Source: an uncultured Bacillota bacterium (GTDB lineage: Bacteria; Sysuimicrobiota; Sysuimicrobiia; Sysuimicrobiales; Segetimicrobiaceae). Taken from it: DNA of 64,000 nt. Of this stretch, positions 17,628 through 26,320 are shown in pieces; position 1 is the first letter of the stretch, and every line of letters starts with the position of its first letter. The translations under genes were made by a program, and so were the position numbers. Under the pieces are notes generated by a model. The model had not been told where the DNA came from. It saw only the letters and a list, made by a program, of their open reading frames with translations, and ran no database searches. The stretch lies in the NCBI GenBank assembly GCA_963804645.1, contig CAWDRG010000015.1:439457-503456 (forward strand). Direction: 5' to 3'.

Positions 17628-19696
17628 GTGTCCAGAGGGCACGCGCGATGGAAGGAGGTGGTGTCGGGAGGATTGAGCGCGTAGCCCGTAAGCTCGTCAC
17701 CGCCAGCGGGTGAAAGTCCCGTCCAGGTAATCGCCAGGGAGCCTGGTAGCAGGCTCCCTGGCGGCGTCAGGGGGAAACGCTTGACGCCGAAGCCCAGCGT
17801 CGGAAGCCTCACGGAGGTAGCAACCGAGCGGTCCGCAGCATGACGTGAAGTCTGCCGCGGCGTTAGACCAGCCCGAAAGGGACCAAGGGGGAGCCGAGCC
17901 CGGAATACCAGGGCGAAGGCCACGGAAGGCGTGGAGAGCCTGGAAATGCAGCGCCGAAGAACCCCCCGCCGTAAGGGGCGCGGAACGTTCGGACGGTGGT
18001 GACGGGAACTGGAGAGGCCCTCCCCGGCCCCGGGTCTGCGATCCGGGAGCAGCCAGTGCGTATAACCGCCAAACGGGAAGTCGCACTGAGCCGGGAGGGC
18101 GTCGGATGGGGCCATATTAGCGACGACCGGCGGGACAACATAACCCGCCCGAGCGAAGGGCCCCTGCTTCGTCCACGTTTGTGGGAGAGGGAGGAACTGG
18201 TGCATGGCCGTGAGGCCCAACAACACCCTCGATAAAGTTCGAGCCCTTCAACACAAACTGTACCGGACGGCCAAGCAGTCGCCGAATCGACGTTTCCACG
18301 CGCTGTATGACCGGGTCCATCGCAGGGACGTTCTCCGGCGCGCGTGGTTGGAGGTGCGCGCCAACCAGGGAGCACCGGGAATCGACGCCATCACCATCGC
18401 GGATATTGAGGCGGCCGGCGTAGAGGTGTTCCTTGACGACCTAGAGGCCAGCCTGCGCGACGGGACGTACCGTCCGCAGCCGCTGCGGCGCGTCTGGATT
18501 CCCAAACCGGGCAAGCCGGACAAGCTGCGTCCGCTTGGGATCGCGAACGTGCGGGACCGGGTGGTCCAGCAAGCGCTGAAGATCGTCATCGAACCGATCT
18601 TCGAGGCGGACTTTCTGCCCTGCTCGTACGGGTTTCGGCCCCGGCGAGACGCCCATCAAGCATTGCAAGCAATGCGGGAGGCAATTCGGGCAGGAAGGAC
18701 ATGGGTGGTGGATGCCGACATCGAGAGTTGCTTCGATCGACTTGCGCATGGCCGCATCCTGGAGTGTCTCCGGGAGCGGATCAGCGACCGGAAGGTCGTG
18801 GAGCTCATTCGGTGCATCCTGTCCGCCGGGATACTCGACAGCGGTACGCTGACGACCCCGACGGAGGGCTCTCCACAAGGTGGGCCGCTCTCGCCAGTCC
18901 TGGCTAACGTGGTCCTGCATCATTTGGACCGAGCCTGGATGACGGAGCACCAGCCGTTGGGAGTGCTCGTTCGCTACTGTGACGATCTTTGCATCTGCTG
19001 CTCAACTCGGGAGAAGGCTGAAGCCGCGAAGGCGGTTTTGGCAACAACCCTGGAAGAGCTGGGGCTGACATTGTCCGGCCCCAAGACGCAGATCGTTGGA
19101 GTCGCAAGCGGGAGCGCGGGATATGACTTTCTGGGTTTCCATCATCAGATGGTGCCCTCGCGGCGTAGACCGAGCTTTCGCTATCCGGCGTGCTGGCCGA
19201 GTGCCAAAGCCGTGCTCCGGTGCCGTTCTCGGATTCGGGAACTCACCGGGCGCAATCGTCGCCACGTCCCCACGCACACGGTTGTGGGCGACCTCAATCG
19301 TTTTCTCGGGGGATGGCGCGAGTACTATCGGTATGGCAACTCGACTCGTTGCTTCGCCAAGTTGGACCGGTATACGGTCGAACGAATGGCGTTGCTGCTC
19401 TCCAAACGACATGGACGGAACGGGCGGGGACGCGGCATGAAGTACATCATCATGTCCGGCAACCGCCTCAGTTTGCTCCGGTTGGTCGGAAGCGTTCGAT
19501 TCGAGCGGGGCGAAAACCGTCGGTGAAGGACGTCGGTGAGCCGAGTGACCGGAAAGGTCATGCTCGGATCGATGAGGAGGGGTTGGAAACGTGTGTCGCC
19601 CGGGACGAGGGCTGGAGGCTGCAAGCCACCGATGGAGGTGGACAGGCTGTACCCCTAATCGGCAGGGCGGCGCGGCGCGCCAACTCCTTACTCTAC
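17628..19696 (+). mobile_element. Group II intron (ribozyme plus RT/maturase ORF)
   Basis: 5' GTGTCC (boundary approximate). Domain V GAGCCGAGTGACCGGAAAGGTCATGCTCGGATC at 19538-19570. Domain VI closes with ...CCAACTCCTTACTCTAC, ending at 19696. Confidence 0.88.
18204..19526 (+). CDS. ltrA: Group II intron reverse transcriptase/maturase (no endonuclease domain)
   Basis: GAPGID, RRVWIPKPG, RPLGI..RDRVVQ, SYGFRP, DADIESCFD, GSPQGGPLSP, RYCDD, FLGF, domain X GWREYY. Confidence 0.95.
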   Translation: MAVRPNNTLDKVRALQHKLYRTAKQSPNRRFHALYDRVHRRDVLRRAWLEVRANQGAPGIDAITIADIEAAGVEVFLDDLEASLRDGTYRPQPLRRVWIPKPGKPDKLRPLGIANVRDRVVQQALKIVIEPIFEADFLPCSYGFRPRRDAHQALQAMREAIRAGRTWVVDADIESCFDRLAHGRILECLRERISDRKVVELIRCILSAGILDSGTLTTPTEGSPQGGPLSPVLANVVLHHLDRAWMTEHQPLGVLVRYCDDLCICCSTREKAEAAKAVLATTLEELGLTLSGPKTQIVGVASGSAGYDFLGFHHQMVPSRRRPSFRYPACWPSAKAVLRCRSRIRELTGRNRRHVPTHTVVGDLNRFLGGWREYYRYGNSTRCFAKLDRYTVERMALLLSKRHGRNGRGRGMKYIIMSGNRLSLLRLVGSVRFERGENRR

Positions 19697-20321: not shown

Positions 20322-20763
20322 TCAGCGACGGCGCGGCTTCTCCTCCCCGGGTTGATTTGACGGTCCCTTGCCCATTACCTTGCGCATCGACTCTCCTTTC
20401 TTAAGACTGAGCTTGTGCGCATGGTGCACCAGCCGATCGAGAATCGCGTCCGCCACTGTGGGATGGGCGATCGCCGAGTGCAGGTTCTCGAGGGGCAACT
20501 GAGACGCGATGAGGGTCGCGCGCGCCTGCACCCGATCCTCGATCACCTCCAAGAGTTCGCGGGCGTCCGGCGCCGCGAGGGGCGCCAAGCCCCAATCATC
20601 GAGGATGAGCAGGTGCGCCTTCGCGAGTCGGGTCAGCAGCCGCGGGTACGACCCATCCGCATGCGCGAGGTTGAGATCGGAGAGCAGCCGCGGCACGCGA
20701 TAGTAGCGGGTGCTGAAGCCCTGGCGACACGCCGCATTGCCCAAGGCGCACGCGAGCCACGAC
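20322..20763 (-). pseudogene. istB: IstB ATP-binding helper, C-terminal part
   Basis: [46 protein letters not shown]. Confidence 0.9.
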
Positions 20764-22414
20764 GCGGGTCACGCTCGTCTTGGTGCTGTCGGATACCACT
20801 GTCTTTGAAAGTCAAACGGAAATTGCCTGACACAGGGATCGCCAACTGTATTTCGAGGCGTTCCTCGGTGACAATCACGCGTTCGACGAGAAGGCGCAGG
20901 ATGGTCTGTTTGGTATCAAAGTCCGCTTCCAGCAGGTGAGGCCGCAGCTGTTCGACGAGGGCGGCGGCACCATCGGCCCGGGTGCGAGTCACTTCCGCCT
21001 CCAGGCGCGCCGTTTTCAGTTCCGCCAGTGCAAGCTCGGCTGAGCGGAGCGACTCCTCGACGACTTCAGTCCGTGTGCGAAAGACTGCAAGAGAGAGGGC
21101 ACCGAGCTGATACGCATCGGTGAGGCGATCGCGCTGCCGGCACAGCTCCTTGACCCGTTGCTCAGCGTGCTGAAACTGCGGATCCCGTTCCGGCCGCGTC
21201 GTGGTCGTTCGCTCCACCCAGGCCGCGAGCTGCTGGTGTAGCTCGTCCGAGTTGAGCAGCAGATCGCGGACGGTGGTCCAGACGGCCTCGTTCACCCCCG
21301 CGACATGAAGGCGCCAGTTTTTACAGCGGTGACGTAACCCACTGTTGATCGTCGTAATGCGTGCACAGCAGGTGTAATAGTGGTAGAGGTATTGACTGCC
21401 GTCGCGGCGGCGTCGGGGTTCATGGTGAGTTTCGCCGACGTACGCGTGACCGCAGACGCCACATTTGAGGAGGCCTTTGAGAAGAAAGACGCCCTCCTGC
21501 TTCAGCCGCCGGCGCGCGAACCGCCGATTCTCCTGGATGCGCTGTTGCACACGCGCAAAGAGTGGTTCGTCGATGATAGGCGGGACAGCCACCGCGATCC
21601 ATTCCGCGGGAGGCCGCGGGATCAAGGTCATCTTTGCGATCTTCCGCCCTGAGCCATCGGGCCCGGATCGCTCGTTGCTGCGGCTCCGGGTGCGATTGTA
21701 GTAGGCCTTGCCGATGTACCACTCGCATCGCAGCATGCGCAACACGGTCGTCCCTGTCCACGTGGGCTTGCCGCACTGAGGCCGCCACGGGGAGACGTTG
21801 AGACGTTGCAGCAGTTTGTACAGCGTCATCCCGTCTTCGGCGTACCACGCGAAGATCTGACGGACCGTCGTCGCTTCTTCTTCATGGATGCGGATACGCC
21901 CGTCCCCGCCATAGCGCTTTGGCGCATAGCGGTAGCCATACGGAGGATGACTGTGGCCAAGCTCTCCCAGCCGGGCGCGATAGAGACGCCCGCGGCGACA
22001 TCGCTCGAGAATCTTGGCCCGTTCGTATTCGGCGATCGCGCCTTGGATCTGCAACAACAGTTGATCATCTGGCGAATCGGTGATGGGGCGCTCGCAAAAG
22101 TGGACCGGCACGCCGACACGCGCGAGCTCCTCGATCAACAGCACTTGGTACGCATACTTGCGCGCGAGCCGATCCGGACAGAGCACCACGAGGGCCTGAA
22201 ACCGTCCTTCGCGTGCGTGATCGCGTAACTCGTCCAGCGCTGGCCGATCGAGACGGCTGCCGCTGAAGCCTTCGTCGATATAGGTGAGCGCCGCCATCGT
22301 GTGGTATCCGTGATCCTCTGCGTAGTGTCTAATGGCAGCCAACTGGCTCTGGATGGTCTGCTCCTGTTCTTGCAGTTCCGTCGACACCCGTGCATACAAC
22401 GCGGTCATGGTCAT
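20633..22414 (-). CDS. Large serine recombinase (intact catalytic, recombinase and zinc-ribbon domains); stop codon lies outside the element
   Basis: [58 protein letters not shown]. Confidence 0.93.
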
Positions 22415-22780
22415 GGCGGCCTCCTCGGCGCGAGGCGATCAGGTTCACCAGCACCTCATGCAAACGCGCGGCGCGGACGTGCGCATCTGCGGTGCCAACG
22501 GGAACGACTTCCACATGATACGGCTCCGCTGCGGTGACGCCCCAGGCGTGGCCTGCAGGATCGCGGTCGAGAAGGCCAAGCATGCCGAAACGCTCCACGC
22601 GCGTCAGAAGAAACCGCGCCACGCTGGTCTGGGGACGCTCGTGGCTCGGCAATAACATGTAACTCCGGACGGTCTCGTAGCGCTGTTGGGCAAGACCACC
22701 GAGCGCCGCGAATGGGACCGTGAGTGGCTCGGGAGGCAACTCGGGAGTCGGCGCGAGGGGCGCGGCGCTTCCATCAGCGG
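22329..22780 (-). CDS. Small hypothetical protein of the LSR element (start uncertain)
   Basis: LAQQRYETVRSYML...RFGMLGLL; overlaps the recombinase start and lies between the HTH gene and the LSR. Confidence 0.5.
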
Positions 22781-23232
22781 TTTTTTTTGACGCGCGCGGC
22801 AAGCAGGCGCTCGATCGTTCGGCGATGCACATCGATGCCTTGCTCGGCTGCCAGGCGCTGCGCGATTTCCTGCCCACTCAATTCGGGATGCGCCCGCAGC
22901 AGTGTCTCGACCCATCGCACGGCGTCGGGCGTCAGCTTGAGCGGCCCGCGGCGCCCGCGCTTTTCATCGGTAAGGCCGACAACGCCGAACGCCTGGAAGT
23001 CGCGCAACGTCACATAAAACGTTTCCCGCGAAAAGCCAAACTCACGTGCGACCATGGTTACATGCTGGCCGTCGAGCGCGTGGGCGCGCAACATCTCATA
23101 TTTAACCTGCACCTTGTCCAAAGGGTCGAAGAAACGATGCCGTACGAACAGCGACGCCCGCACGTGCTCGGGATGCAGATGCAGGGCGCCGATGGACTCG
23201 AGGAACGCGCGTTTCGGATGCCGGCTCGGCAT
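22774..23232 (-). CDS. Helix-turn-helix protein (FFDPxDxxQVKYEMLR type)
   Basis: GGAGG RBS; FFDPLDKVQVKYEMLR, AREFGFSRETFY, GLTDEKRGRRGPLKL, VHRRTIER. Confidence 0.8.
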   Translation of the reverse strand: MPSRHPKRAFLESIGALHLHPEHVRASLFVRHRFFDPLDKVQVKYEMLRAHALDGQHVTMVAREFGFSRETFYVTLRDFQAFGVVGLTDEKRGRRGPLKLTPDAVRWVETLLRAHPELSGQEIAQRLAAEQGIDVHRRTIERLLAARVKKNR

Positions 23233-23593
23233 GCACCACCTCCGTTGGCGCCAGCATAGGCTCCCTGGAGCGTTATGTCAAGTATTGTATGACGCACACA
23301 TCTCCCTCGCCCGGGGCCTCGAAAGATAACCGCGTTTCTTTATGCATCACTACGGTGGAATCCGAGCGACCGCGCGTTCCACTGTCAAGTGGTCGAATCT
23401 GATCGCCATAGATTACCGGACACTTTTCGCGCCCGATTGCCTTTGAGCCTGCCTGCCGCTATCTCCTTCTGTGTGCGGCGTTGCCGGCGCAGGACCCACC
23501 AGCCCGTATAGTCGTCCGTGACTACCGAAAAGCGGATCCGGTGATTTGAGATTCTAAGACAAGCACCTCGCTGACGCCGCCGAAATAGTCAAG

Positions 23594-25002
23594 GAGTCAA
23601 TACCAAAGTTCGTTGAGAAATAGGGGAGCGACCACCCGGCATGGTCACGCCGCCGGCACCTCCTTCCCCAACGCACGTTGTAGCGCTTCGCGAAGTTTAG
23701 GCAGCGCCCGGTAGCCGCGCACCCGGCGCAGCCGCGGTTCGATGTCCAGCAACGCGCTCGCCAGCCACCGCTGTTTCTGATCACTCGTGCGCCACCGATC
23801 GACTTTGCCGGTCCGCGCTTCCACCTGCGCCATCACCGACTCCAGCGCGTTCGTGGTCTTGAAGCTGCGGCCCAGCTCGCCGACGACGCCAAGCCGGTGC
23901 AGCGTCAGGGTTTCGTCCAGGCCCTCGGCCAGACTCCGCGCCGCGCTCTCATTCAGCACCCGGAGCTCACGCGCCAGTCGGTCCAGCGCGGCCTTCGCCT
24001 CCGCGTGCGTCGGCTGCTCGTACGCCCGCTGGAGCTTCTGCCGCCACGTCGCCTGCTGCCCCTTGGGCAGATGCGCGACCACATTCTCGCGCTTGTGCCA
24101 GGTGCACCGTTGCACCGCGGCCGCGTCCCCGAAGACCTCCTGGACCCCGCGGCGCAGGCCCTTGCTCCCATCGATGACGACCAGCAGGCCTTGCTCGTAC
24201 CGCAGCCCCCGCGCCACCAGATCGCGCAGCAACTCGGCGCAGACCCGGGCGTTCTCGGTGGCGGTTTGCACAAACCCCAGGAGGACCTTGTGGCCTTGGA
24301 CCGTCACGCCGAGCACGATCACCATCTCGTCCTCGGCGAACGTCTTGCCATCCAGCAGCACCGCCACCAGATCGTAGCTCTCCAGGCGGCGTTCATTGAG
24401 CGCCCGCAGCTGCCGCGCGCTGGCCCGAATGTAGCGCCGGGAGACCGTCGACGGCGCCAGCCCAAAGGCCTCGGGCACCGCCTCGGCACACTCCGCATAC
24501 CGCCGGCAACTCAGGCCCAACAGCACCCGCCGCATCAATCCCTCATCCAAGGCCCGGGGTTGCTGGAAGCGCTGGTACGTCTCGAGCGGGACCTCGACGT
24601 CGCGGAGCTGATCACGCACACGCTGATAAACAATCGGGAGTTTTTGATCGCCCAGGTACACCGAGCCACGCTCCTTGCTCCAGCGGACGTGGCCGGGCCG
24701 GCCACCCTCACGCGCGTAGCGCGCCCCGGCGAGGCTCCTCGACCTCCCGCTGTAACACGTCCCGCACGGCCTCCAAGCCCGAGGGGAATGAGCGCCTGGA
24801 TCACGGCCACCCGCGTGCCCAGATCCTCAGCCAACTCCCCCGCCTGCCGCCGGCCGACAAACTGCACCTGGCCCTTTGCGCCCACACGTAGTACCTTAGA
24901 CATGGAGCGTCCTCCTCAGCACGGTTTGTGGACTTGTCCGCAAACAATCCATTCACCATGCCGGGGGTCGCTCCCTATTTCTCAACGGACTTAACACACA
25001 CC
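23594..25002 (-). mobile_element. IS256-family insertion sequence within istA
   Basis: Inverted repeats AAGTTCGTTGAGAAATAGGG / CCCTATTTCTCAACGGACTT. Flanks AGTCAAGG / AGTCAAAG form an imperfect ~8-bp duplication. istA reads AFD|YFGG across the element. Confidence 0.85.
23645..24903 (-). CDS. IS256/Mutator-family DDE transposase, frameshifted near 24700-24760
   Basis: LLDGK, VIDGSKGL, VQRCTWHKRENV, TTNALES. Confidence 0.9.
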
Positions 25003-25603
25003 AGTCAAAGGCACGCGTGTGGGCGCCGATCCAGATCGGCTGCGTCTGGGCGAGGGCGCCCTCAAGGTAGGTGAAGTTGCTCATGCCCAGCGTGGCGACG
25101 AAGATGGACACGTCCCGGACCTGCCCCGTCGCCGGGTCCACGATCGCCAGCGTGAGGCCCGCCCAGTCGACGAACATCTTCTCGCCCGCGCGGTGCGGCT
25201 GTCGGAGGACCACATCGAGCTTGCCTTCCCACCGGCGATCCCGCTCGCAGAACCGGCTGTACTGGTACCCGTCGGGATAATCGCGGCGGTACTCCTGCCA
25301 CAAGAGCCGCAGGGTCACCCCTTTGCGGCGCAGTTCCCGATAGATCGCCTCCCACGCTGGCTCCCCCCGGCCCGCGGTCTGCCCCGCCGTCGGTGGGTAA
25401 AGCTTGCCTTCCAGCGTGGCATCGTCGAGCTCGGCAGGCAGGGGCCATGCCAGGCCCAATGCCGCGGCTCGATGGAGCACGCCCATGACGGTGCTGTGCG
25501 CCAGGCCCAGGCTCTGGGTGATCTGCCGGCCCGCCAACTGATGCTCAGTGTGCAGCCGAAGAATATCGCGAACGTTGCGCATCGGTAGTCTCCTGCGTGC
25601 CAC
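25003..25603 (-). pseudogene. istA: IstA transposase N-terminal part
   Basis: RRLPMRNVRDILRL, KGVTLRLLWQEY..YPDGYQYSRFC, HRAGEKMFVDWAG, IFVATLG.SN.TY.E. Confidence 0.92.
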
Positions 25604-26320
25604 GGTGCTCGCACCCCGCTCCCGGTGAGTCATGCTCACCGGGGTTGCGGTGGAGTAACACGAACACCTGTACGCCTCGACTGCCGACGCTCACGATGGC
25701 CGAAATGCCCCGGAATCGCTGGACGATTTAGCCCGGATTCAGTGGACGATTTGCCCCGGAATCACTGGACGATTTGGATTGGAATCGCTGGACGATTTGC
25801 GTCGGAATACGCACGCCGATCGAGACGAACTCCTGCCCTGGCACCGCCACACGGCGTCGGGGCGCACGTTTCTCTTGGTTCGGCTGGCGGCCTGCCTGGG
25901 GTGCGCAGCCTCGGTTAGAGGGATCGGCGTAACCGGCCAGCGCGGGGCGTCCCGCGCGTCGCCAAGGGGTGGATAGGCTGGCGCGGTCCCCCGGGGCGTT
26001 CACGGTTCTTCACCGGGGCGTCATCGAGGCGGGGCGCCGCCTTTATCCCTGACACCTGCTATGGACGGCCTCGCCCAACTGTCCCTCTGATAAGTGAGAA
26101 TCTTTCGAATGGAGGATGGGCGAGTCGTCCCGCAAGTGCAACATTCATATAAAGGGCAAGAACTCGGTGGTGCGTCTGACTTTGGGAGGGGTCATGATAG
26201 CAACCACGACACGGCTTTCCCTGGGGGAATGTTGAACTACCCGGGGTCCCTGGGGCGAGTTCCTCGTCCTAGGGGGGGCTTGTGCTATTGGGGCCAGCTT
26301 ATTCCTGAGAGGAGCGTCAA

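Follow-up and report, generated by a model that had tools for sequence, protein, structure and literature searches.

What moves a 2.76-kb DNA segment that encodes a large serine recombinase (LSR) and no other recombinase, and why does this segment lie inside the istA gene of an IS21 insertion sequence (IS)? The question is raised by a locus in a 64,000-nt stretch of DNA, hereafter the window, from an uncultured Bacillota bacterium placed by GTDB in the Sysuimicrobiota (assembly GCA_963804645.1, contig CAWDRG010000015.1, positions 439,457 to 503,456, forward strand). The element occupies window positions 20800-23561 (2762 bp) and is accompanied by a 2-bp core. An initial annotation, made from the sequence alone, had described a compact three-gene serine-recombinase element, and this description holds; all three open reading frames (ORFs) lie on the minus strand, there is no cargo, and no recombinase other than the LSR is present. 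Read along the minus strand, the order is left arm, leader, a gene for a helix-turn-helix (HTH) protein, a small ORF (ORF2), the LSR gene and right arm. Our analysis reveals that the element is real and recently mobile, and that it homes to one conserved spot in the IS21 transposase gene instead of inserting at random. We postulate, with a probability of roughly 0.8, that it is an autonomous, cargo-free, IS-sized integrative element, which its LSR moves by conservative site-specific recombination into a conserved attachment site (attB) in istA, and that it belongs to a family whose members home clade by clade.

The mobility of the element is best seen from a second copy and from an empty site. 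A BLAST search of its own genome (5.3 Mb in 22 contigs) returned one further copy, C4:170702-173463, which is 98.4% identical and matches positions 3-2764 of the element, that is, from arm to arm; the other copies of the cassette that the initial annotation had proposed to look for are represented by one whose ends coincide exactly. Outside the element, the two copies have unrelated flanks, which blastn could not align. The copies differ at 45 positions, none of them in the arms, with 10 in the leader, 9 in ORF2, 7 in the HTH gene (one amino-acid change) and 19 in the LSR gene (four amino-acid changes), and all three ORFs are open in both. Moreover, among Logan contigs of four public runs, which were aligned on window positions 20500-23860, those of three runs (X1, X2 and X6, from two studies) join 20797 directly to 23562, skipping 2764 nt; the shorter side of the joint measures 30-31 nt, and the joint agrees with the ends mapped from the C4 copy. 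The empty site keeps one dinucleotide, AG on the plus strand and CT on the istA strand, in line with the earlier claim that no target duplication is made. In the element itself, the dinucleotides annotated at the junctions are both present on the minus strand: CT on the left (23562..23563), the same as at the empty site, and GT on the right (20798..20799; AC on the plus strand).

The arms themselves read, on the plus strand, TGTCTTTGAAAGTCAAA at 20800-20816 and TTTGAGATTCTAAGACA at 23545-23561. In the orientation of the element (minus strand), the left, HTH-side arm is the 17-nt TGTCTTAGAATCTCAAA (23545..23561), identical in the C4 copy and with the -10-like hexamer TAGAAT at its positions 6-11, and the right, recombinase-side arm is the 17-nt TTTGACTTTCAAAGACA (20800..20816), which holds the -35-like hexamer TTGACT and codes for the last recombinase residues. 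Our recount gives 14 complementary positions out of 17, not the 13 first reported. Taken alone, this inverted repeat ranks only 18th by length among the 95 inverted pairs of a 3-kb stretch and is not above chance; the arms carry weight because they coincide with the limits of the C4 copy, with the empty-site joint (20797 to 23562) and with what is conserved in relatives. In the sense of ISfinder, the element has several features of an insertion sequence, namely a length below about 3 kb, mobility genes only, terminal inverted repeats and two genomic copies. The target-site duplication of that definition is missing at the window copy, at the C4 copy and at the empty site alike, which is expected for serine chemistry and is also seen in some IS families.

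Both copies interrupt an IS21 transposase gene. For the window copy, the annotated insertion within istA is confirmed: the fragment upstream of the insertion ends in ...DYFGGVSEV (23564..23592, minus strand), the downstream fragment occupies 20763..20797 (minus strand; 11 protein letters not shown), and removal of the element with one dinucleotide restores the frame as claimed (DYFGGVSEV, then L or V, then the 11 letters), which both the empty-site contigs and an uninterrupted homologue support. The C4 copy splits its host gene between ...FFGGVPRSG and VVCDCLKSGV, in the opposite orientation to the window copy. An uninterrupted IS21 at C15:~234.6 kb, which reads GAGGCC-GT-CGTGTGCGAC, provides the intact homologue needed for comparison and supports collinearity: it matches the C4 flanks minus the element and one GT, the C4 flank having one additional C in a C-run. 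The 5.3 Mb of the genome hold five IS21-transposase loci, and the only two copies of the element occupy two of them; at the core position, the three free sites have GT (C22, intact), GT (C15:234 kb) and GC (C20).

Relatives of the element point to the same position. On the NF033546 profile (294 positions), upstream flanks end at 180 (C4), 178 (L008), 179 (L102) and 179 (L080), and downstream flanks begin at 182 (L100) and 181 (L111); the six flanks, counted as coming from five insertions of relatives, break at positions 178-182. The flanks of L107 and L109 are shorter than 20 aa and were placed at this site by eye only, and tblastn searches of local IstA pieces against the loci gave weak matches only. 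Locus L080, whose HTH protein is 97% identical to that of the window, has the window's right flank, but another IS21 on its left, and represents a third site unless the assembly is chimeric. Elements at least 97% identical to that of the window provide three junction sets (window, C4 and the left side of L080), and in this small sample every set falls at one position of IS21 transposase genes. The initial annotation had taken target choice to be relaxed and had itself named a fixed attB as the observation that would speak against this; one istA position is what both copies and the six flanks of relatives have in common.

The dinucleotides at the junctions are those expected for a 2-bp core in most of the insertions. 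Read left/right in element orientation, the eight complete insertions have AC/AC (C4, L008, L002), CA/CA (L087), GT/GT (L103, L104), AC/AT (L001) and CT/GT (window), so that the two flanking pairs are identical in six of them. All 12 junction dinucleotides that could be read at istA sites are NT in the orientation of istA, and a codon for Val, Leu or Ile begins with them. Since the empty site has CT, the GT on the recombinase side of the window copy came with the element or arose by later mutation. The element is oriented as istA in the window, L080, L102, L109 and L111, and opposite to it in C4, L008, L100 and L107 (L107 and L109 judged by eye only), and the palindromic core AT was seen at L102 and L001.

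The recombinase has the hallmarks of its class. Its gene starts at 22414 and extends over 20800..22414 on the minus strand, coding for 538 aa inside the element, with Pfam matches to Resolvase (PF00239, residues 5-150, E 1.8e-33), Recombinase (PF07508, 178-296) and Zn_ribbon_recom (PF13408, 311-383). Besides this domain order, the catalytic serine and the R...D-R-x-x-R residues are in place: R9, S11, D81, R82 and R85 are invariant in 37 sequences, as are the zinc-ribbon cysteines C318, C321, C349 and C364. The gene had been annotated as intact, which is correct in that its reading frame is uninterrupted, though not in that it ends with the element, as the ORF passes through the right arm and stops at 20633-35 in the flank, no stop codon being found within the element. 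Its best NCBIfam matches are CcrB (115.5 bits, cut-off 900) and XisF (95.7 bits, cut-off 375), and DUF4368 is absent among its Pfam matches at E<=0.01, of which there are three families in all.

Upstream of the recombinase lie the two small genes. The HTH gene (22774..23232, minus strand, 152 aa) matches HTH_32/28/29/23, and its product resembles the N-terminal DNA-binding part of IS630, IS481 and IS21 transposases (IS630 55 bits, IS481 49 bits); it is 60-71% identical in 44 loci. ORF2 (22329..22781, minus strand), counted as 150 aa from a run of A residues, is in the +1 frame relative to the HTH gene and has a conserved helical core, F..GG.AQ.RYE.LR...FDL.R..RFGLLGL; it matches no Pfam or NCBIfam family, and its comparison with the small ORF of the pNGR234a unit described below gave an hhalign probability of 7.8%. 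Between the two genes, an A8 run (22781..22788, minus strand), kept in relatives, stands 4 nt ahead of the HTH stop and is a candidate slippage site. Such a run, of A8-A10, occurs at this distance in 41 of the 44 loci with HTH identity of at least 55%, loci that are GC-rich; it is A9 in 34, A8 in 6 and A10 in 1 of the 41, the window element having A8. The exceptions are L100 and L111 (A7) and L112 (A9, scored 0 by the script). The frame of ORF2 after the run is +1 in most loci, L090, L091 and L112 having it in -1, and in 13 of the 41 loci (14 with the window element) none of the 30 codons that follow is ATG, GTG or TTG, a stretch that already holds the start of the ORF2 motif. The conserved run and the shifted frame of ORF2 suggest that an HTH-ORF2 fusion is made there by transcriptional slippage or ribosomal frameshifting. 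A 23-nt inverted repeat, 87% complementary, was also observed, in which the A-run region 22777-22799 is matched by 22595-22617, located in ORF2 159 nt further downstream; it could fold into a structure that influences slippage, or be due to chance. In a distant member of the family (L042, 3644-5782), the ORF2 frame enters the LSR without a stop, and the resulting 713-aa ORF may be a natural ORF2-LSR fusion.

Structure modelling points to ORF2 as a partner of the recombinase; the initial annotation had proposed the small genes as regulator or directionality factor. The predicted ORF2-LSR complex scored 0.67, the best of three controls scoring 0.00; the mark used for such scores is reached by 116 of 157 solved complexes and by 2 of 215 mismatched pairs, counts that hold only roughly here because custom alignments were used. 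At least 73% of contacts recur between the runs, and the predicted local confidence (pLDDT) of the partner is at least 64. The predicted interface brings together LSR residues 317-323, 373-399 and 486-529 and ORF2 residues 52-64 and 83-118. On the LSR side this is the zinc-ribbon domain flanking a predicted coiled coil, the region where directionality factors bind serine integrases. By this model, ORF2 is predicted to bind the recombinase.

Taken together, these features could be accommodated in the following mechanism. The phage-type attachment site attP would consist of the two 17-nt arms around the core, and attB would be the DNA coding for the conserved IstA part F-G-G-V-P-x-x-x | V/L/I-x-x-D-N, with the crossover at the NT dinucleotide that begins a hydrophobic codon, the D-N motif following a few codons later. 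Insertion could occur in either orientation, the element would excise as a circle, and excision would restore istA exactly. The circle may carry over the dinucleotide of the site it left, and a mismatch of one base at the variable position would be tolerated and resolved by replication; a palindromic AT core would let the orientation flip. At the circle junction, the arms would assemble a sigma-70 promoter, TTGACT-17 bp-TAGAAT, driving the HTH gene, ORF2 and the LSR gene; at the A8/A9 run, a fraction of transcripts or ribosomes would shift frame and fuse HTH to ORF2; and ORF2, alone or fused, would bind the zinc-ribbon domain of the LSR, where the coiled coil has its base, and act as directionality factor. 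Each recombinase clade would home to its own conserved site, mostly in genes of other mobile elements.

With respect to the putative junction promoter, the -35 hexamer TTGAC[AT] is present in 18 of 21 right arms, and A2 and T6 of the -10 slot in 15 of 16 left arms (TAGGAT, TAGAAT, CACAAT or CATAAT), compared with none of the 21 right arms when their mirrored slot is read. The left arms were counted with strict anchoring (16 loci), as a relaxed anchor misplaced several of them, and the 17-bp spacing follows from the geometry of the arms. A resident promoter-like site, TTGACA-17-TATGCT (10 of 12 matches), lies at 23253..23281 on the minus strand, upstream of the HTH gene; two promoter-like sites were found in all, against 0.7 expected in shuffles. 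The resident site is part of the 312-nt leader (23233..23544, minus strand), in which the blocks CACCGGAT.CC, GACGAC.GA and GTGGTGG are kept in relatives, and a search of 20500-23900, leader included, gave no Rfam match at E<=0.1.

The element is one of a widespread family. When species genomes were scanned for the LSR, 79 loci were obtained, among which L001-L009, from Gemmatimonadota, Acidimicrobiia, Anaerolineales, Acidobacteriota and other metagenome-assembled genomes, have the same three genes (HTH 60-68%, ORF2 35-46% and LSR 57-66% identical). A metagenome scan with an HTH profile confirmed at least 552 loci among 599 candidates listed, and HTH homologues of less than 60% identity occur in 134 plasmid records, mostly of Sinorhizobium and Rhizobium. 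Close to the window's organism the distribution is patchy, with an HTH homologue in 6 of 101 related genomes and in none of 6 other genomes of the same genus.

Within clade A, to which the window element belongs, the targets are IS21 istA, IS91-type Y2_Tnp genes (L002, L087, L099), DUF222 genes (L103, L104; by Pfam for L103) and a PD40-repeat gene (L001). The Pfam matches of the IS91 targets start at profile position 7-8 for L002 and L099, and L087 was assigned by eye. A quick tree of the LSRs gave SH-aLRT (a branch-support test) values of 99-100 to each of three groups, namely the IS91 trio, the DUF222 pair and L001+L008, and placed the istA rows basally in clade A; judged from these sequences, target choice tracks the recombinase clade. 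The flanks of L001 had been considered as istA, a candidate that was rejected when Pfam and longer ORFs identified the PD40-repeat gene. L001 shares with the istA site of its sister L008 the 9-nt half-site GAGCGGCAC, 3 nt from the core, which points to recognition of DNA sequence and makes the L001 site look like a pseudo-site of a sequence-specific enzyme.

More distant relatives consist of the LSR alone. These 2.0-kb elements have an LSR about 40% identical to that of the window, a leader of about 350 nt and inverted repeats of their own (L011, L013, L070 and L071, 2001-2003 bp; L052 and L075, 1977 bp; L012 and L019; L015 and L024), and pairs of identical copies sit at different sites. Their targets are transposase genes of IS66 (L012, L013), IS256/Mutator (L015, L024, L052, L075) and ISL3/MULE-like type (L011), with breaks at a C-x-x-H motif as judged by eye. 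Another relative is a 3333-bp unit of pNGR234a from Sinorhizobium fredii NGR234, composed of DUF5372, HTH, a small ORF and a 694-aa recombinase (L169 3999-7331, NC_000914.2 33947-37279; also L171 and L172), present as two identical copies and one 78%-identical copy. It has the A9 + stop layout in the manner of the window element, and the one flank tested is an ISNCY-family transposase gene (325.7 bits). The unit is annotated only generically, its small ORF being labelled "transposase" by NCBI, and no paper naming it was found in the literature searched.

Several observations on other members may be added. By eye, distant HTH-bearing relatives (left flanks of L138, L144, L145, L147-L150; L128-L137) adjoin ends resembling the IstB C-terminus, ...DRLxHH..IL, or IS91, ...VFTL, and these flanks may represent further transposase-gene targets. 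The sister clade B (L004-L007, L009, L082, L083, L086, L089, L092, L095-L097, L101 and L105) has a GA core and an apparently non-coding conserved target, with flanks common to several loci and the palindrome GGTCTGGGGAGCCAGACC. These flanks (GTTCGAGTC...) were considered as tRNA 3' ends and rejected, since ARAGORN predicted no genes in 17 loci and Rfam gave no match at E<=0.01 in 7 loci. In L006, an inverted partial clade-B copy (56-400 and ~585-720) lies directly upstream of a complete one, head to head.

Three other explanations of the locus have to be weighed. The element could be an IS-like transposon with a relaxed-target LSR, its location in istA being incidental; the two differing dinucleotides of the window copy, the lack of obvious similarity between arms and target, the position of L001 in an unrelated PD40-repeat gene and the several target genes of the wider family would all fit such an enzyme. 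Yet both of the two genomic copies and all six testable flanks of relatives (five insertions) fall on one IS21 profile position, the various targets follow the LSR clades, and L001 itself has its half-site in common with its sister's istA site. Moreover, the LSR lacks a match to DUF4368, a domain which, according to parts of PMC10083194, is present in 63% of the LSRs of the multi-targeting clade, and we regard a relaxed target as improbable.

It is also conceivable that the element no longer moves by itself, and is a domesticated or immobile intervening sequence, a remnant that interrupts IS21 genes, or switches them on by excising, and that homologous exchange between one IS21 and another, not LSR integration, has duplicated. 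Its precise excision would give back istA, as happens with LSR-excised elements of developmental genes, a partial match to XisF (95.7 bits, cut-off 375) exists and the host IS21 copies are decayed. Exchange between IS21 copies would, however, hardly leave flanks that blastn cannot align and copies inverted relative to istA; nor does a remnant agree with ORFs that are all open in both copies, with LSR and HTH changes that are mostly synonymous, or with a family that spans phyla in a patchy manner (6 of 101 related genomes, none of 6 of the same genus). This explanation we consider very unlikely. Finally, the HTH-ORF2 product might be the real transposase, leaving to the LSR only resolution or inversion. 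The HTH protein does resemble transposase N-termini (the IS630 and IS481 matches of 55 and 49 bits), the pNGR234a small ORF bears its NCBI label "transposase", and recoding at A runs is known in IS elements, the HTH-ORF2 layout resembling the OrfA/OrfAB arrangement of IS3 and IS1. Against it stand the size and nature of ORF2 (about 150 aa, mostly helical, with no match to DDE or another catalytic family), the lack of a target duplication, the 2-bp identity at both junctions, which is a serine-recombinase signature, and the 2-kb relatives, which move with the LSR alone; a transposase of this kind is the least probable of the three, and can almost be dismissed.

A mobile element that its LSR directs to istA thus remains the preferred reading, and a number of observations weigh against it or against parts of it. 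The empty-site contigs do not prove excision, as a strain or IS21 copy may never have been occupied and the shorter sides measure 30-31 nt, and the contigs of the four runs on 20500-23860 contain no circle junction from right arm back to left arm, which is weak evidence because contigs drop rare forms. The istA flanks of the window copy (29 and 35 nt) are too short for the profile test, although their translation fits the site, and specificity is not absolute, given the position of L001 in a PD40-repeat gene. Two of the eight complete insertions have unequal dinucleotides, each differing at one base, which would need mismatch tolerance, core inheritance or later mutation. In canonical LSR chemistry a non-palindromic core should fix the orientation, yet one site was taken both ways (5 vs 4), which needs a variable attP core or mismatch tolerance; flipping through an AT core would reconcile both orientations with serine-recombinase chemistry. 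As for ORF2, five amino-acid changes arise from the 9 nt that differ between the copies, its AlphaFold model is mediocre (mean pLDDT 66.5, confident only at residues ~24-75), a Foldseek comparison of its fold with the PDB gave no match at E<=0.001, and the score of the complex is a model confidence computed with custom alignments. Some ATG, GTG or TTG does follow the A run in 28 of 41 loci, and the junction promoter may be dispensable because a resident promoter already lies upstream of the HTH gene, while the junction -35 hexamer also simply belongs to the inverted repeat.

The surroundings of the window copy show a nest of further rearrangements. The host IS21 is decayed: an IS256-like transposase gene (23645-24661) separates the istA N-terminus (24953-25639) from the 29-nt piece of istA that adjoins the element on the left. 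On the right, after about 35 nt, a deletion joins istA to the IstB C-terminus (20322-20744). The IS256-like (Transposase_mut) element extends over 23593-24952, with its gene on the minus strand, between ...AHTRAFD and YFGGV of the same istA; contigs without this insertion exist, with a loose end at 23592, where they diverge into intact istA. At ~20745-20763, istA is deleted straight into the Walker-A region of IstB, and contigs without this deletion also exist: in X1, X3 and X6, intact istA sequence extends beyond loose ends at 20763, and one of these contigs keeps the element's right end. Beside the IS nest, a 440-aa ORF (18204-19526, plus strand) resembles, by eye, a group II intron reverse transcriptase/maturase.

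Several known systems share parts of this design. The clostridial transposons Tn4451/Tn4453 (TnpX) and Tn5397 (TndX) use an LSR as sole recombinase in excision as well as insertion, with a 2-bp core and no target duplication, and a tnpX promoter formed at the circle junction has been reported for Tn4451. Our element likewise has the LSR as its only recombinase, a 2-bp core and a proposed circle, and its TTGACT-17-TAGAAT would follow the same junction-promoter logic. However, the Tn4451/Tn5397 group measures at least 6 kb, carries cargo (resistance, mobilisation or conjugation genes) and uses a GA core at many sites, whereas the present element is 2.76 kb long and cargo-free, with an NT core, one defined istA site, an HTH/ORF2 module and no DUF4368 match. 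Neither DUF4368 nor over three clusters of target genes per 90%-identity LSR cluster (in a small sample) was found, and the element is not a member of the TnpX/TndX group, TndX-like LSRs being mentioned in the part of PMC10083194 that we consulted. A parallel in target choice is offered by phiRv1, in which the LSR attB also lies in a multi-copy, mobile-element-like gene, with several usable sites per genome and a separate small partner protein. In Mycobacterium tuberculosis, this ~10-kb prophage-like LSR element sits in the repeated REP13E12 (DUF222) and has a small directionality factor. Its DUF222 target is paralleled by the sister clade of L103 and L104; unlike phiRv1, our element is IS-sized, has no phage genes and belongs to a clade that targets a transposase gene.

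Among IS-sized elements with serine chemistry, the IS607 family with its serine transposase TnpA, as described in parts of PMC6188088 and PMC4058570, is similar in size, chemistry and lack of target duplication. In IS607 elements, the enzyme is a small serine recombinase whose DNA-binding domain is N-terminal, terminal inverted repeats are lacking and target specificity is minimal, whereas our element has an N-terminal catalytic domain (residues 5-150) followed by the recombinase and zinc-ribbon domains, inverted repeats at its ends and a specific target. Its NF033518 score is 34.6 bits against a cut-off of 110, and the element is not a member of IS607. Precise excision that restores an interrupted ORF also connects it to XisF (fdxN element), SpoIVCA (skin) and CcrA/B of the staphylococcal cassette chromosome (SCC), and accessory small proteins are known for XisF. 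The CcrB and XisF matches of the LSR are, however, far below the family cut-offs, and the fdxN, skin and SCC elements are tens of kb long, single-copy and tied to development or rlmH, unlike the multi-copy IS parasite described here. Similar in layout is the pNGR234a unit, with a 41% identical HTH protein, A run + stop, small ORF and then LSR, and repeated copies; it differs in carrying DUF5372 in addition, in an LSR that is longer and has an HTH at the C-terminus, in its target family and in its ends.

The element thus works like known LSR transposons and site-specific LSR elements. For IS-sized LSR elements homing to transposase genes, no description was found in the published literature consulted, including parts of PMC10083194, whose supplementary target tables might list such targets, and the earlier remark that the architecture has no named family agrees with what we found there.

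More tentatively, since we hold this broader reading to be somewhat less than an even chance, the elements could form a large, unnamed superfamily of IS-sized (2.0-3.3 kb) LSR elements that are hyperparasites of mobile elements, combining clade-specific recognition of motif-coding, often catalytic, transposase DNA with an on/off switch, an A9-made HTH-ORF2 directionality partner and a carried, mismatch-tolerant core. The conserved A9 run would yield the DNA-binding partner in two forms, of which HTH-ORF2 would dock on the LSR, and the tolerance of a one-base mismatch in the core would open both orientations to the element. The motifs at the breaks are G-G-V-P...D-N in IS21 IstA, D-R-L-x-H-H in IS21 IstB, the start of the Y2 domain in IS91, C-x-x-H in IS66, IS256 and ISL3-like genes, and K-G-x-x-E-R in the ISNCY/rve-type transposase. 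If this were true, the target sites would be multi-copy, harmless to the host and spread between genomes by the victim element, and scar-free, reversible excision would be an on/off switch for the host IS.

If our reading of the element is correct, a serine-recombinase branch would be added to the catalogue of IS-like elements, where serine recombinases are so far represented by no more than IS607 and a few large clostridial transposons. The family is common, with at least 552 metagenome loci and 134 plasmid records, the long-known pNGR234a among them. The appeal to genome engineering that the initial annotation saw in relaxed specificity lies elsewhere, as the target is specific: what the family would offer is a compact set of related LSRs with short arms and defined, differing attB sites (IS21, IS91, DUF222, IS66, IS256), together with a candidate cognate directionality factor encoded next door and an apparent tolerance at one core position. 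The same set would be a panel for studying how LSR specificity and direction evolve. For the mobilome itself, homing to conserved, motif-coding transposase DNA would be a layer of parasitism within it, which could damp or switch IS activity.

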